From a virus (Duplodnaviria; Caudoviricetes): 55,554 bases of DNA. Position numbers and translations under genes: made by a program. The notes beneath the pieces were generated by a model, which was given only the letters and a program-made list of their open reading frames with translations, ran no database searches and had not been told where the DNA came from. Where the stretch lies: IMG/VR virus record IMGVR_UViG_3300033148_006010, positions 1 through 55,554 of that record. The stretch is one strand, 5' to 3'. Positions 10,629 through 53,462 of this stretch are shown one piece after another (position 1 is the stretch's first letter; each line of letters starts with the position of its first letter).

Positions 10629-10980
10629 TACAGGGGCTACTAGAGATAATGAGGAAGGAAAATATGATTATGAGGGGTTTTTGAGTCCTTTATTTCTTGA
10701 AGCGTTTGGTGCTTATATGAATGAACATAGAAAACAAGCTGATGGAGAGTTGAGAGATTCCGATAACTGGCAAAAAGGAATACCTTTAACAGCTTATATA
10801 AAATCCATGTTTAGACATTTTGTAGATTTATGGTTTTTACATAGAGGATATAAAAGATTTGATAAAAAAGATGGACACGAATTAACTATAATAGAAATTT
10901 GTTGTGCGATTATGTTTAATGTTCAAGGATATGGACACGAAACTATTAAAAAACAGATAAAGGATAGTATAAATGAATAA
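10615..10980 (+). CDS. dATP/dGTP diphosphohydrolase-like protein (DUF5664-like)
   Basis: FDTGATRD...GK.DY, NWQKGIP, S..RH motifs; GGAGG RBS before ATG 10615. Confidence 0.7.
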   Translation: MRKFDTGATRDNEEGKYDYEGFLSPLFLEAFGAYMNEHRKQADGELRDSDNWQKGIPLTAYIKSMFRHFVDLWFLHRGYKRFDKKDGHELTIIEICCAIMFNVQGYGHETIKKQIKDSINE

Positions 10981-21332: not shown

Positions 21333-22204
21333 TAACTATAGAAAAACATAAACAAGCGATAGAGATTGTAAAGAATACTTTACATTTGTTAAAAGTATCT
21401 TCTAAACAGTTGCGTATAGAGAAAAAGTTTGAATCACAATTAAGAGTTGTTTTTAATAAGCAAGAAAAAGAATTTTGGAGATTAGAAAAACGAGGTAGAT
21501 GGTTAGAAAAATGTTATATAAAAGCTCAACAAGATTTATCTAAAATTAAAAAGATGGGCATATCAGATAATCCTACTGAAAGAATAGGGTTCATTTCTAA
21601 AATGACAAAAGAATGGCGTAATAGTATAGATAATGATAATAACTTAGAAGAAGTTATATATAGTAATTATAAAGAAGGATATAATTTAGGTGGGCAGAAG
21701 GTTTTGACTGAATTTGCTATACAAGCGAATTTTAATTTAAGGGCTTTAAATGTTTTAGATGCTTTAGGTAAAAAAGCTCATTTAGTGGGTAAGGAAATAA
21801 ATGACGTTAGTTGGGATTTACTTAATAATAAGATTGCTGATAGTTTTTGGAAAGAAGGGAATGGAATAGAACAAGTTACAGCAGATATAAAGGGAATGTA
21901 TAAAGAAACCTATTATCATAGAGGTAGGAATATAGCAAGGACTGAAACTGGTTATGCTGTAAGTGAAGCTAGTTATCAATCTTATAAAAAGGCAAATGTA
22001 CCTATGTTAGAATGGATAGCTGAAATAGATGCTTGTAAATTATGTTCTCCTTTAAGAGGGCAAAAAGTAAAAACTGGAGAATATTTTGATAATGGTTTGG
22101 GGTGGAGAGGGAAAAGACCTTTAGTTCATCCTAGTTGTAAATGTGATATTGTTGGATATGTATCAGATGATTTTATTCCTAGTAAATACTGGGATGGAAA
22201 ATAA
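21329..22204 (+). CDS. Minor head morphogenesis protein (SPP1 gp7 / Mu F-like)
   Basis: IARTET, CKLC and PLVHPSCKC motifs. Confidence 0.9.
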   Translation: MITIEKHKQAIEIVKNTLHLLKVSSKQLRIEKKFESQLRVVFNKQEKEFWRLEKRGRWLEKCYIKAQQDLSKIKKMGISDNPTERIGFISKMTKEWRNSIDNDNNLEEVIYSNYKEGYNLGGQKVLTEFAIQANFNLRALNVLDALGKKAHLVGKEINDVSWDLLNNKIADSFWKEGNGIEQVTADIKGMYKETYYHRGRNIARTETGYAVSEASYQSYKKANVPMLEWIAEIDACKLCSPLRGQKVKTGEYFDNGLGWRGKRPLVHPSCKCDIVGYVSDDFIPSKYWDGK

Positions 22205-24326: not shown

Positions 24327-25490
24327 ATGAAATATTTTTTATCAATATTGTTTTTAATTTTTAGTTTGCAAATTGCAAATTGTTTAGAATATGATTTTGA
24401 TAATTATAATCCTTTATTACCTTATGGATTTGAACAAGTGCAATCTACACAATCTTATGCAAATGGTATTCAAGTTGCTATAGATACTAATACTTTAAGA
24501 ACAGATTTAAATATAGAAATTATTAATAGAATTGCCGAAGATAATCTTATAAGTGATGCAACAGGTCAATTAGCATTAGAATTACAAAACGAAATTTCTT
24601 CTCTTTATTATAATATTGGCGGAGATACACTAGAAGGGGAGATGGATGCCGATTCTAACAATATAGTAAATGCAGGTTCTATGACATTTACTACAGACGG
24701 AATGAAAATATATTCAGACGGGAACTCAATACAACAAAGCACGACTACATTTAATGGACAGATAGATATTAATCTGGACGGCATTAATCAAATGATATCT
24801 ATTACTCAAACACACGACAATAGTATTAATAATCAAGCATTGATTTATGTCAATGACGATAGAACAAAGACTTATGCAAATCCTAAAGAAGCTACATTTT
24901 ATGCAGACGTATATCAAAATCTTGCTTACGGGTTCGCTACTACCAGGGATATATACGCTAATGGTGCGGTAAGGGCGTACACTTTTAACCCGGCTAATAG
25001 TATTGCAATGATGGACTATGCTTCATTGTATTTAGGCAGTTCAAATGATTCATGGATAAGATGGGGGCCATGGGGAACTGCTCATAGTGCCAGATGGGTT
25101 GTAAAGGTCAATAATGCTGGCTATAGCGGGAATATTGATATTTTAGAGGGGGGCGAGTTTGCAAACAGCTTAAATCACGGGTTACAGGCAAACCCAACGC
25201 TTAATATTTGGAATGATGGGGCGACAGGATGTTTGAGAATGACCTCTGACGGAGATTTCGGAGTGATGACTGTATATGAAAGAAGTGCGGGGGTGGAAGG
25301 AGTAAAGATAGATACACATACTTACGTAGGTGATGGTGGTGGTTTTTATCCTGATTGGGTAGACCCGCTTCCCAGTTCCGGTTATGACGCAGGGGCGGTA
25401 GTGGTTTCTACAACTACAGGATATGTACTTTACATTTCTACTGAAAAGGTAACATCCGTAAATTCATGGCAGAAAGTAGCCGACCAATAG
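24327..25490 (+). CDS. Signal-peptide-bearing fibre-like protein
   Basis: MKYFLSILFLIFSLQIANC leader; short coiled coil, GGDTLEGEMDADSNNIVN fibre motif, beta-rich G/S/T/N body. Confidence 0.65.
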   Translation: MKYFLSILFLIFSLQIANCLEYDFDNYNPLLPYGFEQVQSTQSYANGIQVAIDTNTLRTDLNIEIINRIAEDNLISDATGQLALELQNEISSLYYNIGGDTLEGEMDADSNNIVNAGSMTFTTDGMKIYSDGNSIQQSTTTFNGQIDINLDGINQMISITQTHDNSINNQALIYVNDDRTKTYANPKEATFYADVYQNLAYGFATTRDIYANGAVRAYTFNPANSIAMMDYASLYLGSSNDSWIRWGPWGTAHSARWVVKVNNAGYSGNIDILEGGEFANSLNHGLQANPTLNIWNDGATGCLRMTSDGDFGVMTVYERSAGVEGVKIDTHTYVGDGGGFYPDWVDPLPSSGYDAGAVVVSTTTGYVLYISTEKVTSVNSWQKVADQ

Positions 25491-25498
25491 GAGATATT

Positions 25499-25789
25499 AT
25501 GAAATACATTACATTAACAATAATGATAATCTTTTGCACTTTGCAAAATGCAAATGCACTGAATCATGTCAACGTAGATTTCAACAAAATAGAACAGGCG
25601 ATAGAAGCATTAGAGCAATATAAAAGAGTGCTGACTGTTTATCAAGACGGGAAGGTTCATATAGGCAGACAGGATATAGATATTGATTCTAATGATGCCC
25701 TTAAAATTTGGATAGAGAACAAACTGGACACCTTGGCTATTGATGCTAATACTAAAATGAATGACCTTAAATCGGAGATAACGAAATAA
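25499..25789 (+). CDS. Signal-peptide-bearing small helical protein
   Basis: AGGAG RBS before ATG 25499; MKYITLTIMIIFCTLQNANA with AXA site. Confidence 0.7.
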   Translation: MKYITLTIMIIFCTLQNANALNHVNVDFNKIEQAIEALEQYKRVLTVYQDGKVHIGRQDIDIDSNDALKIWIENKLDTLAIDANTKMNDLKSEITK

Positions 25790-25846: not shown

Positions 25847-26515
25847 ATGAAACAATATGATTTATCGAATGTAAAAACAAATGAAGTATCTCTTGTAGAT
25901 TCAGGAGCTATTAAGAAAAAATTTATAATTTATAAAAATAAAAATTCAAAATTGAACATTGGAGGGAATAGATCTATGACCTTAGAAGAATTAAAAAAGC
26001 TAGGGCTTATTGATGATGAAGAAATAAATAAACTTAGTAAGACAGATAAAAGTGCTGAGGAAATTGAAACTTCATTAATTCAGCGACTCGTAGAATCTGT
26101 AAAAAAGGTTCTATCTTCTGAAAAAGTTGAAAAAGATAGTGATGGAAAAGATGGTGATGATAAAAATAAGGAAGGGGATGAGAAAGCAGATGTTGCTAAG
26201 ACTAAAGAAGATATAAAAAAGTTGCAGGATAAAATTGATGAGCTTACTAAGTTGCTTGATGAAAGCAAAAAGAGTCAAGATTTGCTTCAGAAAATTAGCG
26301 AATCCAAAGACCTTAAGGAATTTGCACAATATCTTAAGAAATCTAAGGAGCTTTTTAAGAAAACTGAAAACCCTGATAAAGATACTATGATAGTTAAATC
26401 TCTTGAAGGAATTATACAAAGACTAGAGAAAGTAGAGCTTAAATCTAATGGTATTGATGGCAATGAAGATATACAAAAAAATAAGTCATCAAAATGGGGC
26501 GGAGCATTTCTATAA
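25847..26515 (+). CDS. Capsid scaffold protein with N-terminal protease-like strand; nested start at 25976
   Basis: AAGGAGG RBS; EVSLVDSGA..KKF...K; charged coiled coil ending KWGGAFL just before the capsid gene; internal GGAGG plus in-frame ATG. Confidence 0.75.
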   Translation: MKQYDLSNVKTNEVSLVDSGAIKKKFIIYKNKNSKLNIGGNRSMTLEELKKLGLIDDEEINKLSKTDKSAEEIETSLIQRLVESVKKVLSSEKVEKDSDGKDGDDKNKEGDEKADVAKTKEDIKKLQDKIDELTKLLDESKKSQDLLQKISESKDLKEFAQYLKKSKELFKKTENPDKDTMIVKSLEGIIQRLEKVELKSNGIDGNEDIQKNKSSKWGGAFL

Positions 26516-26570
26516 TTGAATTGAAAAATTAATAATAAAAATTATAAATATTATTTTGAGGTAAAAACGT

Positions 26571-27566
26571 ATGCAAACACCTGAACAGTTAATTGAAAAA
26601 GCGATAATTCAGACTGGGGATATGTCTGGAACTGGTGAAGGCGGTTTACTACAACCTGAAATAGCGAATAAATTTGTTGATTACGTTATTGACCTTTCGG
26701 TAATGACAAATAATGCGAGGATGGAAAAAATCACACCTGACCAGAAGTATATTGATAAGGTGGCAGTTGGAAGTCGTGTTGCAGAAGCTAAGTCACAAGC
26801 AACAACGACTACTACTCGTAGAGGAATATCTACTGAAAGAGTTACGATAACGTGTAAACAGATTATAGTTCCGTGGGAAATTTCAAAAGAAACTCTTGCT
26901 CGTAATATAGAAGGGGAAGCTTTTGAAGACCATGTAGCAAAAATGATGGCAACACAGTTGTCAAATGACTTGGAAGAGTTGTTTATTACTGGAGATACAG
27001 ACTCTAGCGATGCATTTCTTGCACTTACTGATGGTTGGGCTAAAGATGCTTCTGAAAATGGGCATATTTATGATGCAGAAAGAAAAGACCTTGATAGTGT
27101 TTCTGATGCTAAAACCGTATTCGGGAATATGATACGTTCTATGCCAAATAAGTTTAAGAGAAATCGTGCTAACCTTAGATTTTTTATGGGTACGAATGTT
27201 GCTCAAGACTACATTGATGCACTTTCAGCAAGAGCAACAACGCTTGGAGATAAGGCACTTTCCGAGAGATTCACGCTTACTCCGTTTGGTATAGAATTAG
27301 TTGAAGTTCCGACTATTCCGACTAATCTATCGTATAGTTCTCCGACGTATTCCGATAATTCGTATATATTGCTTACACATTATCAGAATTTGATAGTGGC
27401 TTTCGAGGTTCAGTATGCTGGCTCACAGTCAGGTATTGAATTATTGAAAGATAGGGATATATATAAGAATACACGGCAATATTGTTTACATCTGTCTGCG
27501 GATTGTGCGATACAAGAAGATGATGCTATTGTTTATGCAGAGAATGTTAAATCTGTATCTGGATAA
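26571..27566 (+). CDS. Major capsid protein (HK97 fold, XkdG/YqbE-like)
   Basis: GGLLQPE.ANKF, NIEGEAFEDH, NDLEELFITGDT, DGWAK motifs; position. Confidence 0.93.
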   Translation: MQTPEQLIEKAIIQTGDMSGTGEGGLLQPEIANKFVDYVIDLSVMTNNARMEKITPDQKYIDKVAVGSRVAEAKSQATTTTTRRGISTERVTITCKQIIVPWEISKETLARNIEGEAFEDHVAKMMATQLSNDLEELFITGDTDSSDAFLALTDGWAKDASENGHIYDAERKDLDSVSDAKTVFGNMIRSMPNKFKRNRANLRFFMGTNVAQDYIDALSARATTLGDKALSERFTLTPFGIELVEVPTIPTNLSYSSPTYSDNSYILLTHYQNLIVAFEVQYAGSQSGIELLKDRDIYKNTRQYCLHLSADCAIQEDDAIVYAENVKSVSG

Positions 27567-27586
27567 GAATTAAAAAACTTTAAATA

Positions 27587-27663
27587 TGTATGGGAGTGGT
27601 TAGAATTAATTATGTTAGTAAGAGATTATCTGAAAACTATTAAACATCTAGCCACCCCATACA
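27587..27663 (+). promoter_or_regulatory. Long-loop stem between the capsid gene and glycosyltransferase gene
   Basis: TGTATGGGAGTGGTTAGA pairs with TCTAGCCACCCCATACA (one bulge, one G-U); no U-tract. Confidence 0.5.
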
Positions 27664-27681
27664 GTAAGTTAGGAGAAGAAA

Positions 27682-29604
27682 ATGCGATTTGTTTTAAATG
27701 ATAAATTAGGTAGTTTTAGATTTAGAACTTATACTTTTTTGCCGAAAAAAGTAATAGATGTTATTAATGAAAATGATATATGTGATTTACTAAAAAATAA
27801 AAAAGTAAAAGCTCTTGATTTAAAAGTCGTAAAAACTGAAACTATTCCTATTGTAGAAAAGAAAGCAAAAGAAGGACAATTAAGAATAGGAGCTTTGAGG
27901 GTCGGAGGATTAGGAGATACTTTACAGTTAGGTTGTCATGCTAGAGCTATCAAGCGTAAATTTCCTGCATGCTTTTTAACTGTTTATGTGCGTGATAAAA
28001 TAGCTGTAGAAATTATGCAATATAATAAGTGGATTGATAAAACTATACAAGTTGGTATGCAAAGTTGGGATAATATTGTAGATAGAGAATCTATTAGATA
28101 TGATATTTTTTATGATTTTAGATATGTGGTAAAAGTTATATTTAATACTGATAAATTTCCTAAGTATAAAAAGCAGACTGAAGATATTTTTGAACAGTAT
28201 AAAAAAATATATAATAATTTCTGCAAAAGTAATTATAAATTAGAAAAATTAAATACTAATTTAATAGATTTTAGTAATAAAACTGCATGCTTAGATGGTT
28301 CTGAAAATGATTTAACTTTTGATTTAAAGAATAATTTTTGTGGTTATGCTAGAGTAATGGCGAAACAAAAATATATAACGATTCATGTTTCTTCTGGTAA
28401 ATATAGAATAACTAAATCGTGGAATATTGAAAGATGGCAACAGATTGTTAAATATCTTATTAGTTTGGGTTATACTATTATACAGTTAGGAAGCAAGGGA
28501 GAGCCAGTTATTAACAATGTAGTTGATTTAACTGGATTATCGAATATACAAGAAACTGCTTGGATTTTACATGGTTCGCAATTTCATATAGACACAGAAG
28601 GAGGATTAGTACATTTAGCGAAAGCAGTTAATACTCAATCTATAGTTATATTTGGTGCTACTCCAGTAGAATGTTTTGGTTATAAAGGGAATATTAATAT
28701 TAGAGATAACAGTTGTTCTCCTTGCTGGTATAGAACAATAGACTGGGAGCAAAAATGTCCTGATGGTTACGAAACGCCTATATGTTTAGACAAAATAAGC
28801 GTTGATTTGGTTAAAGAAGCGATTAATGTATTTCATATACAGTTTAAAGACAAAAAGGAAATAGTTAGTAAAATAGAAAGACCTTTAGTTAGTATTATTA
28901 TTCCAGTTTATAATCAATTAAAATATTTGAAAGTTACAATAGATTCGATATTAAATAACACGAAAGAAAATATCGAATTAATTATTATTGATAATGGTTC
29001 TGGAAATGAAGTTAAAGAATATCTTAATAATTATAAAAGCTCGAAGATGATTCATATTATTACTAACGATAAAAATTTAGGATTCGGAAAAGCGAATAAT
29101 CAAGGTGCAAAAAGAGCACAGGGAAAATATTTATTATTTTTAAATAGTGATGTCAAAGTAAGTAATGATTGGCTTACTAAGTTACTTGATGGAATTAATG
29201 AGGAAAAAATTGGCATGGTTGGGGTAGCTGGTGGCAGATTAGATAAAAATTTTAGATGTACTGGTATAGTTAGAACTAATGATGCAAGTTATAATTATTT
29301 AGAAGGATGGTGTTTATTATTAGAAAAGCAATTATTCGATGATATTGGTGGATGGGATGAAAGATTTTTTGCTTTTAGTGAAGATGCAGATTTAAGTTAT
29401 AGAATTAAAAAATGCGGTTATAAATTAAAAATAGTTGAAGGGGTTCATATTCATCATTATAGAAATAGAACGGTTTATAATCAAAATGATTTTGATGTTG
29501 CAAAAATGTCATTAGAAAGTAGTAATAAACTAAAGATAAAAATAAAAAGTAGAGGAGGGAGTAAAAATGAAGTATGCAAAATTAAAGAAAGGCAGTTCTT
29601 ATAG
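27682..29604 (+). CDS. Fusion: YqbF-like N-domain + GT9 (heptosyltransferase-like) + GT2 glycosyltransferase
   Basis: RVGGLGD, KSWNIERW, DLTG, DTEGGLVHLA...IFGAT (GT9); VSIIIPVYN, IDNGS, NLGFGKANNQG, FLNSD, GGWDE...EDADL (GT2). Confidence 0.9.
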   Translation: MRFVLNDKLGSFRFRTYTFLPKKVIDVINENDICDLLKNKKVKALDLKVVKTETIPIVEKKAKEGQLRIGALRVGGLGDTLQLGCHARAIKRKFPACFLTVYVRDKIAVEIMQYNKWIDKTIQVGMQSWDNIVDRESIRYDIFYDFRYVVKVIFNTDKFPKYKKQTEDIFEQYKKIYNNFCKSNYKLEKLNTNLIDFSNKTACLDGSENDLTFDLKNNFCGYARVMAKQKYITIHVSSGKYRITKSWNIERWQQIVKYLISLGYTIIQLGSKGEPVINNVVDLTGLSNIQETAWILHGSQFHIDTEGGLVHLAKAVNTQSIVIFGATPVECFGYKGNINIRDNSCSPCWYRTIDWEQKCPDGYETPICLDKISVDLVKEAINVFHIQFKDKKEIVSKIERPLVSIIIPVYNQLKYLKVTIDSILNNTKENIELIIIDNGSGNEVKEYLNNYKSSKMIHIITNDKNLGFGKANNQGAKRAQGKYLLFLNSDVKVSNDWLTKLLDGINEEKIGMVGVAGGRLDKNFRCTGIVRTNDASYNYLEGWCLLLEKQLFDDIGGWDERFFAFSEDADLSYRIKKCGYKLKIVEGVHIHHYRNRTVYNQNDFDVAKMSLESSNKLKIKIKSRGGSKNEVCKIKERQFL

Positions 29605-30040
29605 AACTAAAGGATATACGTTTAATAAGGGTATTTGGGTTGAAATAAATGAAAATGATGTACAGTATTTAATAGATAATTGTAGTAGTAAAATAGAGTT
29701 TGCTCCTGATGGGATAGTACCTAAAAATGATATACAAGAAACTAATCTTAATGGGATAATTGGAATGCAAGGCGAAGGTAAAAAACAAACTGTTGGCACT
29801 ATTGGTTTTAAAGAAAGTGTAAGAGATGAGTTTTCTGATGCAGAGGAAGCAGAAATAATTAAAGTAAAAGAAAAATATCAGAGAAAAAGAGAAAAAGCAA
29901 TTAAAGTAAAAGAGGAAAAAGAATTGCAAGAAAAAACAGAAAGAGAAAAACAGACAGAAAAAAATAATAAGCCAGAAAGCAAAGGCGATATTTCTGATGC
30001 TCAATATATTCATAAGAAATATAGAAACGAAGGTGATTAA
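29567..30040 (+). CDS. YqbF-like head-associated protein
   Basis: MKYAKLKKGSSYRTKGYTFNKG...YL resembles the Bacillus skin YqbF N-domain, which also follows the capsid gene; charged tail. Confidence 0.6.
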   Translation: MKYAKLKKGSSYRTKGYTFNKGIWVEINENDVQYLIDNCSSKIEFAPDGIVPKNDIQETNLNGIIGMQGEGKKQTVGTIGFKESVRDEFSDAEEAEIIKVKEKYQRKREKAIKVKEEKELQEKTEREKQTEKNNKPESKGDISDAQYIHKKYRNEGD

Positions 30041-30042
30041 AT

Positions 30043-30684
30043 ATGGGGAATTATTATACGTTAGCACAAGCTAGAACTGATGGTATAACTTCATCGGAAG
30101 CTAGTGATGACAAAGTTAATGAAGAAATAAATCGTGCAGAAGAATTACTAGAGAAATGGACTGGGCGTAAATTTTATGCTCGTGATTTAAGTCTAAGTCT
30201 TGATGGTACAGGGAAGGAATGGTTAGATTTAAGTAGGTATCGTCCTATAAATAGTATTAGTTCAGTAGTAATAGATGATGATACAATTAGTGTAGATGAT
30301 TATATAGTTATTTACGAGAATTCAGGAATTTTGAGAATTAAGCGAGAGGGATGGAGTGTTTTTTCTGGACAGCATCAAGCATATTATACTTTTACTAGGG
30401 GTTCTCAGAATATTGATATTGAAGGCAATTTTGGTTTTGAAACAGTACCTTACAATATTAAATATGTAATTAAAAAAATGTTATTCAGAGAGATTCGACC
30501 TAGAGAAAGTTTTGGTAAGTTTGAAAGTGAACATATAGGAAATTATTCTTATAAATTAAATACTGCTAGAAATGCAAGAGGTGGGAAAGGAGAAATTTTA
30601 ACAGGTGACCCTGAATTAGATAGAATTATACATACTTATAAAGATAAAATATCGTTGTTATCTGTTACGAGAGGGTGGCAGTGA
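30043..30684 (+). CDS. Head-tail connector/adaptor
   Basis: E.WTGRKF, DGTG, GFETVP..IK, SEHIGNYSY motifs; position. Confidence 0.85.
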   Translation: MGNYYTLAQARTDGITSSEASDDKVNEEINRAEELLEKWTGRKFYARDLSLSLDGTGKEWLDLSRYRPINSISSVVIDDDTISVDDYIVIYENSGILRIKREGWSVFSGQHQAYYTFTRGSQNIDIEGNFGFETVPYNIKYVIKKMLFREIRPRESFGKFESEHIGNYSYKLNTARNARGGKGEILTGDPELDRIIHTYKDKISLLSVTRGWQ

Positions 30685-31025
30685 GTTTAGATAGTATGTT
30701 TCCTATAACTGATGCAGTAATTAAACAACAGGTAAAGACTTCTGATGGTATGGGGGGTTATACTTTAACGTGGAGTACAAGAGTATCTGCTTATAAATGT
30801 AGAATTTATTCTGCTATAGGTATGATAGAAATTATTCAAACAGGGCAAAATTTATTGGTTACGCATAAATGTATAGGCGAATATAATGCAAATATTATTG
30901 AAGGCGATGCTCTTGTTAATGGAAGCGATAGTTATAGAATAGTACAAATTGATAAGATTTATAATAGGGAAAGAATACATCATTTGGAAATGAGATTGAA
31001 AAAGGAAAATATAATTTATGAGTAA
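30675..31025 (+). CDS. Head closure protein (SPP1 gp16-like)
   Basis: SDGMGGY...W and HHLEM motifs. Confidence 0.85.
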   Translation: MAVSLDSMFPITDAVIKQQVKTSDGMGGYTLTWSTRVSAYKCRIYSAIGMIEIIQTGQNLLVTHKCIGEYNANIIEGDALVNGSDSYRIVQIDKIYNRERIHHLEMRLKKENIIYE

Positions 31026-44757: not shown

Positions 44758-45048
44758 ATGAAAACTGTTTTAGAGATAGAACAGACTCTGCCTCGAAATA
44801 AAAATGAAATTGAATCTAAAGGTGGTAATTATAGCGACCTTGAAAGTTCAGGACTTATACAGCATAAAATTTGGATAGATGAAACAAAAGATATTTATGA
44901 ACGAATAGATAGTATATATCATGAATTTACGCATTTCTTATATTCTTTTTTTGAGTTAGAAGAACCAGTTTGTTATAATGCAGGCCAAAAAGCGGCGGAA
45001 GAATTTAAAAAACATGTAGCAAGATTAAGACGTGAGAGGAAAAAATGA
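44758..45048 (+). CDS. Small HEXXH metallopeptidase-like protein
   Basis: IWID...SIYHEFTH...EE. Confidence 0.6.
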   Translation: MKTVLEIEQTLPRNKNEIESKGGNYSDLESSGLIQHKIWIDETKDIYERIDSIYHEFTHFLYSFFELEEPVCYNAGQKAAEEFKKHVARLRRERKK

Positions 45049-45710
45049 AAGTTAGTATTGTTATGCCTACTTATAATATGCAAAATACAATAGATAGGGC
45101 TATTGATAGTATTATTAAACAAACTTATAAAGACTGGGAATTAATAATTGTTAATGATGGCAGCATAGATTATACTGATGATTTAGTAAAAGAATATATA
45201 GAAAAAGATAATCGAATAAGATTGTGTTCTTTATATCAAAATCAAGGAAGGGCAAATGCTTATAATATAGGTATCGTTCAAGCTAAAGCCGATTTAATAG
45301 CAATTCATAATGCTGATGATGTTTATTATCCTAAGAAAATTGAAAAGCAAATTGTAATATTCACATGGAATAAGATTTTAGATGTTTTAGGTACAGGGTT
45401 AAAAATACCAAAATACAATAAGAAAGAAATTGCCCCTCATCAAGTAACTGCCGAGATATATAAACATATGATGATTAATCATGCTACTATAATGTTCAAG
45501 AAAAAGTGGTTTTATAAAGTAGGTGGTTATGATACTAAATTTAAAAGATGTGTAGATTGGGATTTTTGTTGTAAGTTATTTGATGCTGGAGCTGTAATGC
45601 AAAGTATAAATACTATTTTGTATGTTTGGTATCCGAATATAAATACAGATGGATATAATGAATCGGTTGATGCTGTAAGAAAAAAATGGGAGTATAAGAC
45701 AAAAAAATGA
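45045..45710 (+). CDS. GT2 glycosyltransferase
   Basis: VSIVMPTYN, VNDGS, NADD, GGYD, DWDF. Confidence 0.93.
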   Translation: MKVSIVMPTYNMQNTIDRAIDSIIKQTYKDWELIIVNDGSIDYTDDLVKEYIEKDNRIRLCSLYQNQGRANAYNIGIVQAKADLIAIHNADDVYYPKKIEKQIVIFTWNKILDVLGTGLKIPKYNKKEIAPHQVTAEIYKHMMINHATIMFKKKWFYKVGGYDTKFKRCVDWDFCCKLFDAGAVMQSINTILYVWYPNINTDGYNESVDAVRKKWEYKTKK

Positions 45711-46360
45711 AATATCCTATTGGAATTGTTGTCGTAGCGGTTAATATAGAAGATAAAATTAGAACTAGGTTTAGAGATATTTTATATTCTAGTTCTTCTT
45801 TATATATGGATTGGATATGTACGGTTCGTTATTGGGAAGAATATAGTATGAATATTGATGGATTGCTTAATAAAAGTGAAGCACTTAATGATGGAATTAC
45901 GAGATTGCGAGATGAATGCGAAATTATAATTTGCACTGATATAGATATGCTTATACCGCCTCAATTAATTGAATATACTTATGAAATGTTAAAAGTTCCT
46001 AATAATACTAATTTGTGGATTCCCGCTAGGAATATAGATGAAGATAAAATTACACCTATTGAATGGGATAAATGGAAAAAATTGCCTTTGCGTATGAGTG
46101 GTACAGGTAGTTTTAATGCTATGCGAACAGAAGATTGGATTGAAAGCGGAGGATGGGATGAACGATTTATAGGATGGGGAGGAGAAGATGATTTTTTTAA
46201 ATTACAAAGAGAACATTTTGGAATTAAAACTATTGTAAGTACTGATTTTCCTTTGATGCATGTTAATCATTTGCCTAGACAAAATAAACAAGCATTAAAT
46301 GGTATTAACAAAAATGTTTTAGAGATAAGATTAAAAGAAGGATTTAAAAAATGGTTATAA
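45707..46360 (+). CDS. GT-A glycosyltransferase (GT2/GT7-like)
   Basis: NKSEALNDGI, TDID, GGWDERFIGWGGEDD, HVNH. Confidence 0.88.
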   Translation: MKYPIGIVVVAVNIEDKIRTRFRDILYSSSSLYMDWICTVRYWEEYSMNIDGLLNKSEALNDGITRLRDECEIIICTDIDMLIPPQLIEYTYEMLKVPNNTNLWIPARNIDEDKITPIEWDKWKKLPLRMSGTGSFNAMRTEDWIESGGWDERFIGWGGEDDFFKLQREHFGIKTIVSTDFPLMHVNHLPRQNKQALNGINKNVLEIRLKEGFKKWL

Positions 46361-47040
46361 ATCCTAATCATAATTACGTTACTTTTTTTGTATGTTTGCA
46401 ATGTCAAAGGCATTGCTCTGAATGTAGTCAACAACCTTTAATGAATTGGAAGCCTAAATATCAAATGAGTTTAGAAGAAATAGAAAAGTTTATTAAAGTT
46501 ACTAAAGATTCTGGCTATGATAAATTTAAATGGATTATAATATCTGGTGGAGAACCGTTATTGTGGAATAATTTAGAGGAAGGATTATCTTTATTAAAAA
46601 AATCTAAGATTGCTAATGCTATCAAAATTTTTAGTAATGGAATCAATGTATCTAAAATTACATATAAAGTATTGATTAATTCTAGTGTAATAAGGGTATC
46701 ACAATATAAAGAAAATTGGCAAATATTACAAGATTTAAAAAGACAATATAAAAACAAAATAGAAATTGTTGATAGAACTGTTCATACTAAACTACCTACT
46801 AAATTGTATGATAATGTTTTACCTGCTAAATGCCATTGTCAAGGTTATGCTGTTTGTGATAATAAGATTTATGCTTGTCCTATGATACCTGCTATTTGTC
46901 GTAAATTAAATTTTGATATAGAATATTTTTGTCCTATTATTCCTCATTGGGTAGAAGCATTAGATTTATTTAATAGGGAAAATGAATATGTTTGTCAAGG
47001 ATGTATAGGTAATTTAAAAGTTAGAGAAAAAATAAAATGA
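46351..47040 (+). CDS. Radical SAM enzyme with C-terminal Cys-rich (twitch/SPASM-like) region
   Basis: CQRHCSEC, SGGEPLL, SNG; later CHC...YACP...CQGC. Confidence 0.9.
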   Translation: MVINPNHNYVTFFVCLQCQRHCSECSQQPLMNWKPKYQMSLEEIEKFIKVTKDSGYDKFKWIIISGGEPLLWNNLEEGLSLLKKSKIANAIKIFSNGINVSKITYKVLINSSVIRVSQYKENWQILQDLKRQYKNKIEIVDRTVHTKLPTKLYDNVLPAKCHCQGYAVCDNKIYACPMIPAICRKLNFDIEYFCPIIPHWVEALDLFNRENEYVCQGCIGNLKVREKIK

Positions 47041-47606
47041 ATATAAAAGAACAAGCAAAAAAAAATTTATTAGATTTTAAACAAGTAGCAGATGAATTAA
47101 AAATTCCTTTTTTTCTACAGGCGGGAACATTGTTGGGAGCATATAGAGATAAGGACTTTGTTAAGGGAGATGAAAGTGATTGTGATTTAGGTATTTTAGA
47201 ATGTTATTATAAGCGTATTCATGAATTAATGATTACATTGAAAGCAATAGGGTTTAAAGTATCTTATATTTTTAGATTTGAAAATGCTATTGAAAGTGTT
47301 AAATTTGAAAGAGGACAAAATCATCTTGATGTTCTTAGTATACATATTAGAGGGAGTAGGGCATTTAATTTAGGTAGAAGTTTTGGTTCTCATGGATTAC
47401 CCTCTATTTTTGCATATACTTTTTCATCGGCTTGTTTTATAATATTTGAAAAATTAAAGTTTCTTGGTACAGAATTTGATGTACCTTATCCAACTGAAAT
47501 GTATTTAAATGATAAATATAGAGATTGGAGAGTTCCTGTTTCAAGAGAAAAATATGATTATTTAGATGTTAAACAAGCACCTTGTATAAATAATACTGAT
47601 TGGTGA
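47037..47606 (+). CDS. LicD-family nucleotidyltransferase-fold phosphotransferase
   Basis: GTLLGAYRD..F...E.D.DLG; FLG..F.VP...E.YL...Y.DW..P. Confidence 0.88.
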   Translation: MNIKEQAKKNLLDFKQVADELKIPFFLQAGTLLGAYRDKDFVKGDESDCDLGILECYYKRIHELMITLKAIGFKVSYIFRFENAIESVKFERGQNHLDVLSIHIRGSRAFNLGRSFGSHGLPSIFAYTFSSACFIIFEKLKFLGTEFDVPYPTEMYLNDKYRDWRVPVSREKYDYLDVKQAPCINNTDW

Positions 47607-48125
47607 TATCCAAAATGAAAAAAATAATATATGCAACAATTTGGGGAGAAGAAAAAATATCCCTTCCTACAGAACTTCCTATTTTATATAGCTATCCTTA
47701 TTCAATTAATTTACCTAAACATGTTGTTAAATCTACTTTATTTGATGCGTTATCTCATGCTAGATGCGTTATCTCATGCTATAGAAGCATTTTGGGCCAA
47801 TGATGCTACAGATGAAACAAAGAGATATTCAATTATAGCTATATCATTAATAAGACAATATTTAAATTATTGTTAAGAAGGTTGGCTATTGGTTGAAGCA
47901 GGAAACTATGCAGGTAGAGCTATAGCTTTAACTCGTACAAATATAGTTCATTCTACATCATATAATCTTACAATTAATTATGGCATAGAACATGGTACGG
48001 CATGTAGTATTTTATTACCTGATATTGTTAGTTATATGAATAATAAAGAACTGCCAATATTTTTTGGTTTAAAAAATACTCAAGAATTAGTTTGTTATCT
48101 AAGATTATTGAGGGATTCTTTATGA
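47600..48125 (+). pseudogene. Decayed iron-containing alcohol dehydrogenase, HEPD/phosphonoacetaldehyde reductase-like
   Basis: Three fragments join as YATIW...KISL...DALSHAIEAFW...AGRAIALTRTNIVHSTSYNLTINYGIEHGTAC; 19-bp tandem duplication 47744-47781; in-frame TAA 47874-47876; N-terminal NAD-binding part missing. Confidence 0.85.
47744..47781. repeat. Exact 19-bp tandem duplication GATGCGTTATCTCATGCTA x2
   Basis: Read directly; causes the frameshift in the Fe-ADH gene. Confidence 0.97.
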
Positions 48126-49084
48126 TAAATAAAATTGCAATTATATCTTATACAAGTAGACAAGAGGGATGTCTTTCCGGAGTAGAAAGATTTAATTGGT
48201 ATTTACAAAAAGCAATTGGTGGAAAAATATATACTGGAACAATGTTTAAAATGCCTAGTCCTCAGGCTTTAAATGCTGTTTTACAACATGAAGGATTAAT
48301 AGATGAAGAAACTTTATGTATAGTAGATGGTTCTTGGGGACTTGGAATAGATGTTGGTATTCTTGTTATAAGTGTTGTTCATGGTACTTGGGCGGAATTT
48401 AATTTAAGAAATCACAAGAAACATATTGAAGATAAAGACCAAGATAATATGTGGCATAGGCCTAATACAAAAATGGTTGCTGTATCAAATGCATCTGCTA
48501 AATATCTTTTAAAACATCATAAAGTTAAAGCGGATAAGATTATTTTAAATGGAGTTGATACAAATATTTTTAAACCTATTGAGCATAAACAAGTTAATCA
48601 TAAACCTGTTGTATTACATTGTGGTAGGGATTATAATAAAGATGGTGGTGGAAAATTACAACAAATTAAAGAGATGTTAAAAGATAAATTTCATTTTAAA
48701 TTATTGAATGTTAAGGACGGCGAAGAAATAAAAGTATTTCAACATTCTGATATAGTTTTACAATGTTCAAAATATGAAGGTAATTCTTATTTTATGCTTG
48801 AAGGAATGGCTTGTGGTTTACCTGTTGTTGCAAGCAGGGCTGGACTTTTTGAAGAAAAAACAATTTGTGGATATAAAAGTTTTAAGGGATTATTAGGAGA
48901 TACTTTAGAATATGATGCTAATGTTGATGAATTTGTACAAGCTATTGAAAGCGTTTATGAAAATAATAAGAAATATAATTATGGACAAAATTGTAGAAGG
49001 TGGATTTTAGAAAATGCTACATTTGAAATTTTTGCAAATCAATGGAAGGAATTTATAGAAGGAAATTATGGATTTAAAGTTTAG
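48122..49084 (+). CDS. GT4 (GT-B) glycosyltransferase
   Basis: SGVERF, VAVS, NGVDTNIF, YEGNSYFMLEGMACG.PVV (EX7E); ATG 48122 in ATGA overlap. Confidence 0.92.
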   Translation: MINKIAIISYTSRQEGCLSGVERFNWYLQKAIGGKIYTGTMFKMPSPQALNAVLQHEGLIDEETLCIVDGSWGLGIDVGILVISVVHGTWAEFNLRNHKKHIEDKDQDNMWHRPNTKMVAVSNASAKYLLKHHKVKADKIILNGVDTNIFKPIEHKQVNHKPVVLHCGRDYNKDGGGKLQQIKEMLKDKFHFKLLNVKDGEEIKVFQHSDIVLQCSKYEGNSYFMLEGMACGLPVVASRAGLFEEKTICGYKSFKGLLGDTLEYDANVDEFVQAIESVYENNKKYNYGQNCRRWILENATFEIFANQWKEFIEGNYGFKV

Positions 49085-49781
49085 TTGTGTTATTTTGACT
49101 TATAACAGAAAAGATGTTTTGAAAAAATGTTTACTTGCTGTAGCAGAAAATACTTATGAGCGTAGATGTAATTATGAAGTTATTGTTGTTAATAATTGTT
49201 CTAATGACGGAACATTAAAATTGCTTGATATTATGGGCGGACAGTTTGATAATTACAAAGTTCTTAATCTTAATAGAAATTATGGTGTTATTGCTCGTAA
49301 CAGAGCATTTAATCTTGCACGTGGGAAGTATATAGTTCAAATAGATGATGATGTTTTAGTTCAAAAAAATTGGGATAAAGAAGTTTTTAAATATTTTAGA
49401 AATCCTCAGGTTGGAGCAGTAGGAACGGAAGGGTCAAAATGGATAGGTTGGGTAAACAAGCATAATAAAGATATAAAAATAGGTGATTATGTAGATTTTC
49501 TTACTGGACAATTTTGGGTATTTAAAAATGAGAGTTGGTTATACGATGAAAGTTTTGGACATTTTTGGCACGAAGAATCTGATTTACAAATGTGGATGAA
49601 ATATAGAAAGAAATATAGGTTTTGTCAATGTAATAGAAATGTTATTAGGCATTTAGAATTAAGAAGCGAAAAGACAATGGATTGGAAGTTGCATGATAAA
49701 AATTGGCAGATGTTTGTTGATAAATGGAAGCCGAGAGAAAATCAATTAAATCTAGAGGGAAAAAATGCAAAGGTATTATAA
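49068..49781 (+). CDS. GT2 glycosyltransferase
   Basis: VILTYNR, VNNCSNDGT, NYG...RN, IDDD, EESDL. Confidence 0.92.
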   Translation: MDLKFSCVILTYNRKDVLKKCLLAVAENTYERRCNYEVIVVNNCSNDGTLKLLDIMGGQFDNYKVLNLNRNYGVIARNRAFNLARGKYIVQIDDDVLVQKNWDKEVFKYFRNPQVGAVGTEGSKWIGWVNKHNKDIKIGDYVDFLTGQFWVFKNESWLYDESFGHFWHEESDLQMWMKYRKKYRFCQCNRNVIRHLELRSEKTMDWKLHDKNWQMFVDKWKPRENQLNLEGKNAKVL

Positions 49782-49908
49782 TTTAGATTATTTTTTAAGA
49801 CCAGATGTTTATTTAAAAGTACATGAAGCTTATTGGAAGAGCCATAAAATTAAAAGATTTTTTAGAAATTTAATGATATTATGGTATATAATTAGAGGGA
49901 AAATATGA
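49765..49908 (+). CDS. Small hypothetical protein (47 aa, not in ORF track)
   Basis: GAGGG RBS, ATG 49765, ATGA overlap with the next gene. Confidence 0.55.
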   Translation: MQRYYNLDYFLRPDVYLKVHEAYWKSHKIKRFFRNLMILWYIIRGKI

Positions 49909-50864
49909 AAAAAATATTATTTGTATCACACGGATTTGCCTGTTTTATGTCAGACATATTATTCCATGGTTTAAAAAAATCAGGTTACGATGTTACTGAA
50001 TACCCTCAAGGAACTCATTATTATGGTGGAGATAGTGTGTTTGCAGGCAGGAAAAACTTAGGTAAGAATGATTTTTTAAACTTTTGTTATTTTGATTTTT
50101 CTAGAAAACAGTTGTCAGATGAAGAAATATTAAATCAAGATTATGATGCTGTTATAATTACTTCTTGGGTACCAGAAAAACCATGGATATTAGAAAATAT
50201 TTATAAGCGTTTTAAAGGTAAAATTCCTATTGCATTTGTGGATGGAGAAGACGATAAAATAATTAGAAAAAGAGAATTTTATAATGATATTTATTTTAAA
50301 AGAGAAGCTTGTAATAATGAAAATGTTAAACCTATTACGTTTGGTATTATAGATAAATATGAATTTGATTTAATAGATTATAATAAAAAACATTATGATT
50401 TAAGCTTTATCGCATCTGGACATAATATAAATAGTTTAAGATGTCAAATGTTCAGATTTTTAAAACAAGAAAAGAATGATAAAATATTTTATATGGATGT
50501 TGAAAGAGATAAAAGAGGTATGTTGTCTTACGCAGAGTATTTCAATGTTTTACGCAATTCAAAAATTGGTATTAGTATAGAAGGGGAAGGATATGATACA
50601 TATCGTTATTGGGAAGTTCCTTATTTTGGGGCAATGCTTATAGCTGATATGCCTAAAATAGATATATCTAATAATTTCATTGATATGGAAAGTGCTGTAT
50701 TTTTTAAAAACATTATGGATTTTCAAGATAAATTTAATTTCTTAAAAAAGAATCCCTTAAAAATAAAACATATTGCTGAACAAGGATATCAACATTTAAT
50801 GAAATATCACACGTCTAAAAACAGGGCTCAATATGTTATAAACGAATTGGAGAAAATAAAATGA
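49905..50864 (+). CDS. GT-B glycosyltransferase (Glyco_trans_1_2 / CgeB-like)
   Basis: DGED, YFKRE, Y...LRNSKIGIS..G.GYDTYRYWE...G, IAEQG...H. Confidence 0.82.
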   Translation: MKKILFVSHGFACFMSDILFHGLKKSGYDVTEYPQGTHYYGGDSVFAGRKNLGKNDFLNFCYFDFSRKQLSDEEILNQDYDAVIITSWVPEKPWILENIYKRFKGKIPIAFVDGEDDKIIRKREFYNDIYFKREACNNENVKPITFGIIDKYEFDLIDYNKKHYDLSFIASGHNINSLRCQMFRFLKQEKNDKIFYMDVERDKRGMLSYAEYFNVLRNSKIGISIEGEGYDTYRYWEVPYFGAMLIADMPKIDISNNFIDMESAVFFKNIMDFQDKFNFLKKNPLKIKHIAEQGYQHLMKYHTSKNRAQYVINELEKIK

Positions 50865-51631
50865 TAGATATTGTAATAGTAAATTATAATTATGGTAAAT
50901 ATATAATACCTTTATTAAATTCATTACTTAAATGTCAAGATGTGTCTTTTATAAATCAAACCATAACAGTTGTTGATAATAAATCTAAAGATGATTCTGT
51001 TCAATTAATTACTGATTGGCTTTATAATAAAGATTTTTCGTGTAATTTAATTATGTCTGAAAATAAAGGTTATGCTCATGCTGTTAATTTAGGGGCAAGA
51101 ATTAATAAAAGTAAATATATCATGATTTTAAATGCAGATATGCTTGTTTTGGATAGTTTTTGGAAAGAGAAATTTATAGATACATTTGAATCAGAGAAAA
51201 ATATTGCAGTTGTAGGGTGTAAATTAATTGACCAGTTTAAAAAAGTTGTTGGTGCGGGTACTATGGGTACATTTCAACGTAGACAATTTAGAGCTTATGG
51301 TGTGAACGATTCTGCGATTCCTAGCGATATTTTTAATCAACCTGCAGATTGTATTAATGTTTGTGGTGCGGCTTATATGGTTCGTCGTGATATATTTGAA
51401 AAGCTTGGAGGTTTTGATGAAGATTTTTTTATGTATTATGAAGAAGAATTTTTTTCAATTAAGGTTCAAAAATTGTTAGGAATGAAAGTTAGATATATAC
51501 CTTATACAACATTTTTACATTATTCAAATCCGTCCGGAAAGTTTAATAACGAAAATCGTTATCAAAGAATATCAGGTAAAACTTTCATAAGGAAATGTAA
51601 AGAAATAGGAATACAGGGGGTTCAGGTATGA
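50861..51631 (+). CDS. GT2 glycosyltransferase (rhamnosyltransferase-like subgroup)
   Basis: IVIVNYN, VDNKSKDDS, NKGYAHAVNLG, LNAD, GGFDEDFFMYYEE. Confidence 0.93.
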   Translation: MIDIVIVNYNYGKYIIPLLNSLLKCQDVSFINQTITVVDNKSKDDSVQLITDWLYNKDFSCNLIMSENKGYAHAVNLGARINKSKYIMILNADMLVLDSFWKEKFIDTFESEKNIAVVGCKLIDQFKKVVGAGTMGTFQRRQFRAYGVNDSAIPSDIFNQPADCINVCGAAYMVRRDIFEKLGGFDEDFFMYYEEEFFSIKVQKLLGMKVRYIPYTTFLHYSNPSGKFNNENRYQRISGKTFIRKCKEIGIQGVQV

Positions 51632-52332
51632 GTATAATAGGTGCGTGTGTGGTTTATAATAATCAACATATTTTTCATAAACCATTAGAAACATTTAGAG
51701 CTTTATGTGATAAAATAATTATAGTAGATGATTGTTCTGGATTTTTTTATAAAGGAATGATTCAAAAATATTATAATAAGAATAATTGGCGAGTATATGC
51801 ATTAGGCAAAAAAACGAAGAAAGAAATTGAAAGACGTTCTAAATTATGGAATTTAATTTGTGAAGATAGTACTGAAAATGATTGGATTGTTTTGCTTGAT
51901 TCAGATGAATCTTATCACGAAAAAGACTGGAAGCATTTGTTAGATTTAATGAATCAATATAAAAACGATGACCATATACGATATATTGCTACTAGATTAT
52001 ATAACATGTGGAGCGAAACGGAATATAGAATAGATGGTTACTGGAATCCTAAATTTGAATTAAAAAGGCGAATTTTTAAACTTAAAAAAGGAGATTATGT
52101 GCCTAGAAATTTTAATCCGAATATTATAGAATGTGGCGAAGTTCCTAGTTATGTTTTCGGATTAAGTGGTATAAATACGGAATGTAAATTGCTTCATTGG
52201 GGCTATGTTTTACCCAAAGAAAGACAGCGTAAATACGAATTTCATAAAAAAGTAGACCCTGAAGGAAAATTTCATTTATCTTCTCATATAGACAGTATAA
52301 TTCAAAAACCTACATTGACGACATTGACATGA
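51628..52332 (+). CDS. GT-A glycosyltransferase (GT2-like)
   Basis: IIVDDCS, WIVLLDSDE, LLHWGY. Confidence 0.85.
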   Translation: MSIIGACVVYNNQHIFHKPLETFRALCDKIIIVDDCSGFFYKGMIQKYYNKNNWRVYALGKKTKKEIERRSKLWNLICEDSTENDWIVLLDSDESYHEKDWKHLLDLMNQYKNDDHIRYIATRLYNMWSETEYRIDGYWNPKFELKRRIFKLKKGDYVPRNFNPNIIECGEVPSYVFGLSGINTECKLLHWGYVLPKERQRKYEFHKKVDPEGKFHLSSHIDSIIQKPTLTTLT

Positions 52333-53462
52333 AAAAAATAGCATTAATTAATCCTGCAAGTTCTTTTTTAGTTCATGATGGAGATAGACCACCTTTAAAT
52401 CTTGCTTATCTTGCTACAAGTGTTAGGCAATCACACGATATAAAAATTTTTGATTTTTCTATAAATAATCATTTAAAATTACTCAGAGAAATTAGAAAAT
52501 ATAATCCTGATATTATTGGATATACTGCTACTACTCCTACTTTTCCTGAAACTGTAAGATTATTAAAAGAAATATCGGTTATTGTACCGACAGCTATAAA
52601 TGTTATCGGTGGTGTCCATGCTACAATTATGCCTAAATATTGTTTAAAATGGTTTGATTATGTAATTATAGGTGAAGCTGATTTTAGTTTTAAGAAATTT
52701 TGTAGCGAAGAAAAACCGAAAGATAGAATTATTAAATCTGATACGATATATAAAATTGATGGACTATTACCAGCACGAGATTTATTGCCTATGAATAAGT
52801 ATAACATGCAATTAGATAACGAAAAATGTACAATTATAATTACTTCAAGGGGATGCCCTTATGGATGTATTTATTGTAGTTCGATTGCTGGTAAAAGAGT
52901 AAGATTAAATAGTGCCGAAAATGTTGTTAATGAAATTGGTGATATAATGAGTAAATATAATTATAGAAGTTTTTATTTTCTTGATGATATATTTACTATA
53001 GATAGATTTCGGGTATTTGAAATTTGTAGATTAATAAGAGAAAGAAAATTGAATATTGAATTTAGAATTACTACTAGAATTGATTTAGTTGATAAGGTTA
53101 TGTTAAATGTTTTAAAAGCATCTGGTTGTAAAATGATTTGTTATGGTTTAGGATCTGGTTCCGATAGAATGTTAAAATTTTATAATAAGAAATTTCAAGT
53201 ACAAGATATTAAAAGAGTTGTTAATATGACTAAACAAGTTGGCATTGAAATAAAAGGGTTTTGGATGCATTCTAAATATGAAAATATAGAGGATGGAAAC
53301 GATACTGATAGTCTTATAAAGGAATTAAATTTAAAAGAAAATGGCATATACGATTTAGTTGTATATCCAGGTTCTGAATTGTGGCGAAGGGAAATGAAAA
53401 ATATAGAGCCAGATATTCAATATTTTGAAAAATTATATCATGGAGGAAAGAATAATGCGTAA
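52329..53462 (+). CDS. Cobalamin-binding (class B) radical SAM enzyme
   Basis: PPLNLAYLA, GGVHAT, GEAD, TSRGCPYGCIYC, FLDDIF, YPGSELW. Confidence 0.92.
   Translation: MKKIALINPASSFLVHDGDRPPLNLAYLATSVRQSHDIKIFDFSINNHLKLLREIRKYNPDIIGYTATTPTFPETVRLLKEISVIVPTAINVIGGVHATIMPKYCLKWFDYVIIGEADFSFKKFCSEEKPKDRIIKSDTIYKIDGLLPARDLLPMNKYNMQLDNEKCTIIITSRGCPYGCIYCSSIAGKRVRLNSAENVVNEIGDIMSKYNYRSFYFLDDIFTIDRFRVFEICRLIRERKLNIEFRITTRIDLVDKVMLNVLKASGCKMICYGLGSGSDRMLKFYNKKFQVQDIKRVVNMTKQVGIEIKGFWMHSKYENIEDGNDTDSLIKELNLKENGIYDLVVYPGSELWRREMKNIEPDIQYFEKLYHGGKNNA

Follow-up and report, generated by a model that had tools for sequence, protein, structure and literature searches.

A putative capsid-docking domain on a dual glycosyltransferase encoded directly behind a phage capsid gene

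The primary study on virion glycosylation in mycobacteriophages is reportedly that of Freeman et al. (2023). Sugar coats around phage particles have been described for a few mycobacteriophages, in which they reportedly make antibodies recognise the particles less well (PMC12363180), and the mycobacteriophage glycosyltransferases Che8 gp110, Corndog gp38 and that of Myrna are said to glycosylate the phages' own capsid and tail tube proteins (PMC12363180; PMC12582341). How such enzymes find the capsid was not described in any of the matches listed by our full-text literature search. A second group that is relevant here consists of the BAHT protein O-heptosyltransferases TibC and AAH (PDB 4RAP and 4RB4), GT9-like enzymes of the GT-B type that glycosylate protein, carry a four-Cys metal finger in the C-lobe and, according to the available part of the source, form a dodecameric ring (PMC4358343). 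Here we describe a locus in the IMG/VR virus record IMGVR_UViG_3300033148_006010, where the gene directly following the major capsid gene encodes a 640-amino-acid (aa) protein with two glycosyltransferase (GT) domains, of the GT9 and GT2 types, behind a small N-terminal domain that is also found in the product of the next gene. The window, i.e. the whole stretch of DNA analysed, is this 55.5-kb record, which has a G + C (GC) content of about 30% and carries every long open reading frame (ORF) on the + strand; the record is estimated to be 52% complete.

Our favoured interpretation is that the 640-aa protein docks on the capsid and, acting as a two-step protein glycosyltransferase, begins a glycan there, a reading to which we give about even odds (roughly 0.5). 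The phage is uncultivated, and all functional statements on the enzyme rest on prediction and genomic context. Phage-encoded virion glycosylation is known already; what is new is a docking-type tag, resembling YqbF, on a glycosyltransferase. No description of a YqbF-like tag on a glycosyltransferase was present among the matches listed for the wider queries of the literature search, and none of the YqbF papers dealt with enzymes, which agrees with a preliminary description of this DNA that had stated that no such tagged enzyme is known to have been described.

The shared N-terminal domain and its relation to YqbF

In the 640-aa protein (27682-29604, + strand), an N-terminal domain of about 45 aa (hereafter the N-domain or tag; residues 1-45, 27682..27816, +), which is YqbF-N-like and is the proposed capsid-docking module, precedes a variable linker and then the GT9 and GT2 domains. 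The downstream gene (29567-30040, +), which overlaps the stop of the enzyme gene by 38 nucleotides (nt), encodes a stand-alone YqbF-like protein of 157 aa, with the N-domain at residues 1-40 and then a Lys/Glu-rich tail. The segments in question are LNDKLGSFRFRTYTFLPKKVIDVINENDICDLLKN in the enzyme (residues 5-39 of ORF 27682-29604) and LKKGSSYRTKGYTFNKGIWVEINENDVQYLIDN in the 157-aa protein (residues 6-38 of ORF 29567-30040). BLASTP aligned the two N-termini from the first residue onwards without a shift in register, 15 of 39 positions being identical (E 6e-6), and the Smith-Waterman score of 53 was not reached by any of 20,000 shuffles (mean 20.5, standard deviation 4.0, maximum 44). When 77 + strand frames of at least 60 aa were compared, the best non-self match of the enzyme N-terminus was the 157-aa frame. 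Likewise, a hidden Markov model (HMM) of 23 GT N-domains placed the 157-aa ORF second after the enzyme itself among 705 six-frame open frames (E 2.3e-6; next E 0.035), and a profile of 15 enzyme N-domains was aligned to the 157-aa N-terminus by hhalign with a probability of 94% (E 1.1e-7). Judged by these sequence comparisons, the two N-termini are homologous. The preliminary description, which had noticed the match between the first ~45 aa of the GT9-GT2 protein and the N-terminus of the next gene and had let its proposal depend on the significance of that similarity, is thus borne out on this point.

The opposite view, that the resemblance is due to chance or to a functionless recent local duplication, could draw on the shortness of the shared stretch (about 40 aa) and on the lack of a Pfam match in the GT copy. 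It is nevertheless very improbable, given the outcome of the shuffling, the retention of the domain at the front of GT9 enzymes whose N-domains are 16-56% identical to that of the window, and the confident folding of the N-domain alone in an AlphaFold2 (AF2) model of residues 1-50, with a predicted local distance difference test (pLDDT) value of 90.3. The protein identity of the pair, only 38%, also means that a duplication would not be recent. The possibility that further enzymes of the window carry the tag was rejected, as six-frame scans found exactly two copies. Apart from the 157-aa protein itself, no relative of similar or greater length was found for it, and a 4-sequence YqbF-type profile also found none among longer proteins, which is weak evidence. 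With its N-terminus as the query, tblastn against phages gave only two matches, at E 2, in one Synechococcus phage, and phmmer of the protein against the PDB gave no YqbF match, only chance-level kinase matches.

The tag is very probably a divergent YqbF-N-like domain. For the 157-aa protein, the likeness to YqbF that the preliminary description had pointed out was right, if borderline: the Pfam model PF14553 scores 25.9 bits on the whole protein, 28.2 bits on its first 60 aa and 27.2 bits in the six-frame scan, against a cut-off of 27. For the enzymes, the link comes from a profile-profile comparison, in which 23 GT N-domains aligned with four YqbF sequences in the expected register with a probability of 69.6% (E 4.2e-5). 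The four sequences were taken from genomes, three of them being above the Pfam cut-off, and the set was this small because PF14553 was found in just 3 of 301 genomes of one phylum. The AF2 model of the N-domain has the order strand-strand-strand-strand-helix-strand, and its best match among 48,161 chains is 2HJQ, the nuclear magnetic resonance (NMR) structure of YqbF (Z 6.7, root-mean-square deviation (rmsd) 3.5, 48 of 50 residues placed on YqbF 2-49; next Z 5.4). Foldseek ranked 2HJQ second among 350,542 chains, with the highest TMq (0.65) and an E of 4.3. The structural match is persuasive only because the family suspected in advance ranks first, and the YqbF fold of the GT N-domain is a predicted one.

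Against this identification, the Z of 6.7 and the Foldseek E of 4.3 are each non-significant alone. Moreover, PF14553 gave no match at E <= 10 to a GT N-domain, whether in the window N-terminus, in five GT N-termini or in the six-frame scan of the window, and its sole weak match to a tagged enzyme (16.9 bits, in the enzyme of contig L011) is about as strong as a match in an unrelated ORF of another genome. A profile of 15 GT N-domains did not find 2HJQ among PDB sequences at E <= 10. In a fold search of BFVD, the N-domain model gave 237 matches at E <= 10 and none at E <= 0.001, mostly to uncharacterised small Caudovirales proteins. As a side observation on the family, true YqbF domains in the contigs L024 (58.3 bits) and L025 (56.6 bits) are orphan small ORFs away from recognisable phage genes, that of L024 lying upstream of a major facilitator superfamily (MFS) transporter gene.

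Conservation of the fusion behind capsid genes and its catalytic domains

Both the tag-GT9 fusion and its position behind capsid genes are conserved. A survey based on the capsid covered 26 loci, and in 18 of them the ORF that starts immediately 3' of the capsid gene is a tagged GT9 (E 1.9e-21 to 5.5e-8; next match E 1.1), across capsids with only 24-31% identity to that of the window (alignment A4). The 26 loci are those of 25 viral contigs and of L011, a contig from a Candidatus Omnitrophota single-cell assembly (L029, L038 and L052 denote the contigs otherwise called L006, L008 and L009), and the 18 loci amount to 15 distinct N-domain sequences because L041-L044 are identical. When contigs were reached via the enzyme instead, it was directly 3' of the capsid gene in all four viral contigs, and the tagged enzyme of L011 has the same position. 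With only the tag as the query, an exhaustive profile search among 1.84 billion representative proteins returned 10 clusters at E <= 0.001, and in 10 of 10 the tag is followed by the start of a GT9 domain, the short members being fragments. The search for fusions of YqbF-like domains with glycosyltransferases in other phages, which the preliminary description had proposed, has thus found them.

While the homologues keep the tag and the GT9 domain, the C-terminal module varies. It is a GT2 domain in P0002 and P0003, which are about 62% identical to the window enzyme, a GT2 domain plus a second GT9 domain in P0004-P0007 (about 43% identical, 910 aa), and an S-adenosylmethionine (SAM) methyltransferase in P0008 and P0010-P0012. 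In tblastn against phages, the 640-aa enzyme gave matches to the GT2 domain only, with no record covering at least 80% of the query, and blastn of window positions 26000-31000 against 50,697 phage records gave no match.

The gene order of the window places the YqbF-like domains between the capsid and head-tail connector genes. In L027, a Phage_capsid gene and DUF3199/DUF3599 flank a true YqbF (55.5 bits), and therefore the enzyme occupies the YqbF slot; where a small YqbF-type protein is normally held, this phage has an enzyme and its stand-alone 157-aa paralogue. Among the other loci of the survey, L047 breaks off within the capsid gene, the capsid of L032 is followed by a GT2 gene alone, and L045 and L048 have no glycosyltransferase adjacent to the capsid gene. 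L030 has a distant capsid and then a 128-aa protein, which resembled YqbF by eye but has no PF14553 match and is left unassigned here. In the near-identical loci L049-L051, which represent one lineage, the GT9 protein (about 4380-6090) is 509 aa long and begins directly at the GT9 fold, and its gene is separated from that of the capsid by a GC-rich hairpin with a T-run. The head module of L011 reads Mu-F-like protein, XkdF protease, scaffold, capsid, tagged GT9-methyltransferase and GT2, and its presence in an Omnitrophota assembly is a possible hint to the host group of the phage clade. In the methyltransferase clade (L008 7535-10969; L009 7821-10520), more GT2-like and SAM-methyltransferase-like genes are found in the head module right after the tagged enzyme.

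As for the enzyme itself, the charged linker (about residues 46-65, 27817..27876, +) is poorly conserved and varies in length in alignment A1, where the GT9 G-loop motif begins at residue 71-78 in the nine N-domain-bearing rows; in our reading of the 640-aa protein, the linker is flexible and comprises about 20-30 residues. The GT9-type GT-B domain (about residues 66-385, 27877..28836, +) matches Pfam Glyco_transf_9 (PF01075) at residues 212-337 with 36.4 bits, against a cut-off of 22. Catalytic roles are ascribed, in part by PMC4358343, to the G-x-G-D loop and to the K-x-W Lys; G76, G78 and D79 of the loop and K245 and W247 of the K-x-W motif are invariant in the 12 sequences of A1, and K245 is aligned with TibC K230. 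Inserted in the C-lobe is a four-ligand Cys knuckle, C345-x2-C348-x10-C359-x8-C368 (28714..28785, +), the columns of which are conserved over the 12 rows, with His at position 345 in four of them. HMMER aligned its first CxxCW (C345/C348) with C339/C342 of TibC, which are ligands of an iron finger that contributes to substrate recognition (PMC4358343). On the other hand, the BAHT model TIGR04414 gives 32.5 bits (E 4.2e-8) against a cut-off of 200. Because the Cys finger and K245 align with TibC while TIGR04414 stays far below its cut-off, the GT9 domain can, from its sequence, plausibly be held to work like a protein glycosyltransferase, though not to be a BAHT member. The GT2-type GT-A domain (about residues 401-600, 28882..29481, +) matches Pfam Glycos_transf_2 (PF00535) at residues 404-524 (107.8 bits, E 7.1e-31, cut-off 23.3) and PF13641 at 403-597, with related Pfam models reaching 599; its PDB profile matches include chondroitin synthase 2Z86/2Z87 (4.9e-17) and polypeptide GalNAc-transferases.

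The same catalytic domains could also be put to a use away from the virion. The substrate would then be, for example, a host envelope glycan (LPS-core-like, teichoic acid or capsule, with receptor masking or superinfection exclusion as the effect) or the phage DNA, the N-domain would serve oligomerisation or another partner, and the position of the gene would reflect late co-expression. The GT9 domain matches lipopolysaccharide (LPS) heptosyltransferases as well as it does TibC (PDB profiles WaaF 2.4e-8, TibC 1.8e-7 and WaaC 1.7e-6; heptsyl_trn_I 4.1e-11), polysaccharide pathways typically include partners of the GT2 and methyltransferase kinds, the window has a large glycan cluster apart from the head module, and L049-L051 do without the tag. 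We still regard a substrate other than the virion as unlikely, if worth serious consideration, as the tag-GT9 gene stays directly after the capsid gene across capsids that have diverged as far as stated above, the tag is homologous to a head-slot protein, and a complex prediction (below) passes with the capsid and fails with controls. For DNA in particular, the window, which belongs to a record that is only about half complete, showed no enzyme that would make hydroxymethyl-pyrimidine DNA. The glycan cluster just mentioned, a late one (45045..53462, +), contains by Pfam four or five GT2 genes, two GT1/GT4-like genes, a LicD-like gene and two radical SAM enzymes, one of them B12-binding. One of its GT2 genes (50861-51631) is weakly related (23-34% identity) to the GT2 genes that follow the GT9 gene in L032, L011, L049, L009 and L046. 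Possibly this cluster extends the proposed capsid glycan, a pathway link that we infer.

Predicted docking on the capsid, the candidate acceptor and the head module

The major capsid protein (26571-27566, +), of 331 aa and with an HK97 fold, matches phrog_1623 (E 2.4e-82), while its match to Pfam Phage_capsid (E 0.001) is below the cut-off. Its AF2 model has at least 391 PDB matches at E <= 0.001, those at the top being the P4/P2 procapsid, encapsulins and phage capsids. A gap of 115 nt, in which no terminator-like site turned up, separates the capsid gene from the enzyme gene, and the ribosome-binding site of the latter is strong. When the capsid protein (alignment of 21 rows) and the tag (alignment of 15 rows) were submitted to complex prediction, the score was 0.65 (runs 0.64, 0.66 and 0.65), as against 0.00 for the best of three controls, with contacts agreeing 100% between runs and a partner pLDDT of at least 83. 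In calibration, 58 of 80 solved complexes attained the mark, as did 2 of 110 mismatched pairs, counts that hold only roughly here because custom alignments were used. It seems unlikely that the score comes from a memorised structure, because 2HJQ, the only solved YqbF entry returned (in searches none of which was aimed at a YqbF-capsid complex), is by its title an NMR structure of YqbF alone.

On the tag, the predicted interface comprises residues 8-15, 35 and 38-41, the positions that are best shared with the 157-aa protein. On the capsid, it comprises residues 162-168, 170, 186, 189-190, 256-257 and 317-318, which lie after the long helix 115-140 and, by position, in the A-domain. The core of this predicted docking site, capsid residues 162-170 (NGHIYDAER; 27054..27080, +), contains a motif, x[YLV]DA, that is kept in most of the relative capsids. 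The complex prediction supports binding of the N-domain to the major capsid protein, an interaction that we treat as predicted throughout.

The obvious candidate acceptor in the capsid model is a Ser/Thr-rich patch at residues 76-88, QATTTTTRRGIST (26796..26834, +), which is proposed as the target of O-glycosylation. In the model, strands 60-62 and 90-105 flank the low-confidence loop (62-88) that holds the patch, which is by position the E-loop. In 25 of 26 related capsids, the best 12-residue window contains 6-8 Ser or Thr residues, with 5 in the distant L030; the patch of the window capsid was read from the sequence at the same place, outside the 26 that were scored.

It can be envisioned that the N-domain would dock the enzyme on the major capsid protein by strand pairing with its A-domain, around residues 162-170. 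The tethered GT9 domain would then add the first sugar to a Ser or Thr of the nearby flexible Ser/Thr-rich loop, the probable E-loop, and the GT2 domain would add the next sugar, after which the enzymes of the late cluster may extend the chain, giving rise to a glycan-coated head. In this scheme, the acceptor, the order of the sugars and the occurrence of virion glycosylation itself are what we infer.

Docking on the head could also have another purpose. The N-domain might target the head as an assembly or packaging module of the YqbF or lambda gpFI kind, with the enzyme being taken into or onto procapsids and carried with the virion, or acting on the portal, the scaffold or the packaged DNA rather than on the shell. 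In lambda, the gpFI gene follows the capsid gene. The gpFI protein is reported to bridge capsid and terminase (PMC13595911; PMC4493119), its C-domain (2LSM) comes sixth when the N-domain model is compared with 48,161 chains (Z 3.5, 41 residues aligned with an rmsd of 2.0), and the fold search with the capsid model also returned cargo-loading encapsulins. However, a Z of 3.5 is weak, nothing points to a signal for cleavage or packaging, a glycosyltransferase outside the cell has no sugar-nucleotide donors, and the conserved Ser/Thr-rich loop of the capsid offers a simple acceptor. An assembly or packaging role of this kind is therefore distinctly unlikely in our estimation.

Returning to the capsid-docked protein glycosyltransferase, we note that several results, besides the failures to detect YqbF by sequence, weigh against it. 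By score, the GT9 domain is equally near to the LPS heptosyltransferases and to TibC. The capsid model is weak (mean pLDDT 61), and the partner in the complex prediction was the capsid monomer, the sole head protein tried. The idea that the Ser/Thr-rich loop tracks the presence of the enzyme was rejected, as the loop is also present in the capsids of L045 and L048, next to which no glycosyltransferase is encoded. Finally, L049-L051 have the GT9 enzyme in the same place without an N-domain, and because of this the tag must be dispensable in that lineage. Hence, the earlier claim of a capsid-docking tag is supported in part, by the controlled prediction with the capsid monomer and by the retention of the tag behind capsid genes, while the lineage of L049-L051 speaks against a strict need for the tag.

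If the capsid-docking interpretation is true, a small separable docking domain would explain how the enzymes are targeted to the capsid. It would also give a role to the uncharacterised YqbF fold, which is encoded by many phage head modules, and could serve as a portable tag with which enzymes or other cargo are brought to shells of the HK97 fold, engineered capsids and encapsulin-like cages among them. More tentatively, and with the balance somewhat against it, the YqbF-type domain may be a general, portable address tag for the capsid lattice of tailed phages, which an uncultivated clade has fused to interchangeable glycan enzymes (GT9 with GT2, GT9 or methyltransferase) that would thereby gather on the shell during assembly and build a methylated or extended coat on the flexible Ser/Thr-rich E-loop. 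Were this so, the orphan YqbF family would gain its first function, and virion glycosylation its first described mechanism of substrate docking.

The remainder of the head module, all on the + strand, starts with the portal (19695-21332), followed by a Mu-F-like protein (21329-22204) and a 523-aa protein (22223-23794) that ends in an XkdF-type prohead protease (PF14550 at residues 356-474); the 523-aa protein has a long N-terminal region and a CxxC...CxxC motif at its end. A putative scaffold (25847-26515), which has a weak phrog_3017 match alone (E 0.003), precedes the capsid gene, and the head-tail adaptor (30043-30684; phrog_442, E 1.3e-21) closes the slot between capsid and connector. Further 3', the Pfam models for a head completion protein, a gp10-like protein of the HK97 type and a tail tube protein match weakly, below their cut-offs. 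The ORFs 24327-25490 and 25466-25789 (+), which are situated between the genes for protease and scaffold, have signal-peptide-like or lipobox-like N-termini, and such a location is unusual for exported proteins; the sole match of the former is a below-threshold one to phrog_1798 (E 0.0024). An 871-aa ORF (17068-19683, +), presumably the large terminase because it is directly 5' of the portal gene, carries an intein with an HNH_3 endonuclease (Intein_splicing 1.9e-17, HNH_3 7.3e-9). The replication module includes an N6/N4 DNA methyltransferase (8781-9767, +; PF01555, 5.9e-17) and a Cas4-like PD-(D/E)XK nuclease (10973-11776).

Comparison with known systems

With virion glycosylation in mycobacteriophages, the locus shares a phage-encoded glycosyltransferase and, in our proposal, the phage's own virion as the target. 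No docking domain is described for the mycobacteriophage enzymes in the accessible portion of the source (PMC12363180), whereas the enzyme described here is a GT9-GT2 fusion with a YqbF-like tag. Unlike in the mycobacteriophage systems, its gene lies inside the head module of an unrelated, low-GC, uncultivated phage.

TibC and AAH are like the window enzyme in the first CxxC of the finger (corresponding to C345/C348), in TibC K230 (corresponding to K245) and in having an extra N-terminal domain, which in TibC and AAH is a beta domain. The Cys spacing differs, being x2/x10/x8 in the window enzyme and x2/x15/x11 in TibC. The substrate of TibC and AAH is, from what the available part of the source states, an autotransporter beta-helix, and the N-terminal domain of TibC is a 97-residue beta-barrel packed on the catalytic domain, while that of the window enzyme is a YqbF-like domain of 45 aa on a linker (PMC4358343).

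YqbF of the Bacillus subtilis skin element (PF14553; 2HJQ) has, by prediction, the same small fold as the tag and stands in the same slot between capsid and connector; the gene order around it in the skin element is cited in PMC11526630. Proteins of the YqbF type are small and stand-alone and form an orphan family, whereas the domain in the window is fused to enzymes and is too divergent for PF14553. Lambda gpFI (2LSM) is also described as small and head-associated, and a flexible linker bears the domain with which it contacts the capsid (PMC13595911; PMC4493119). Its capsid-binding domain is C-terminal and has no enzyme attached, the likeness in fold is weak (Z and rank as given above), and homology of gpFI to the tag is not established.

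A last parallel, by analogy only, is offered by the polypeptide GalNAc-transferases, whose lectin domain is a substrate-docking domain. In these enzymes, as proposed for the 640-aa protein, a linker joins the catalytic GT-A domain to a second, non-catalytic one, by which the enzyme is positioned on its protein substrate, although the docking fold is a different one, being C-terminal and sugar-binding.

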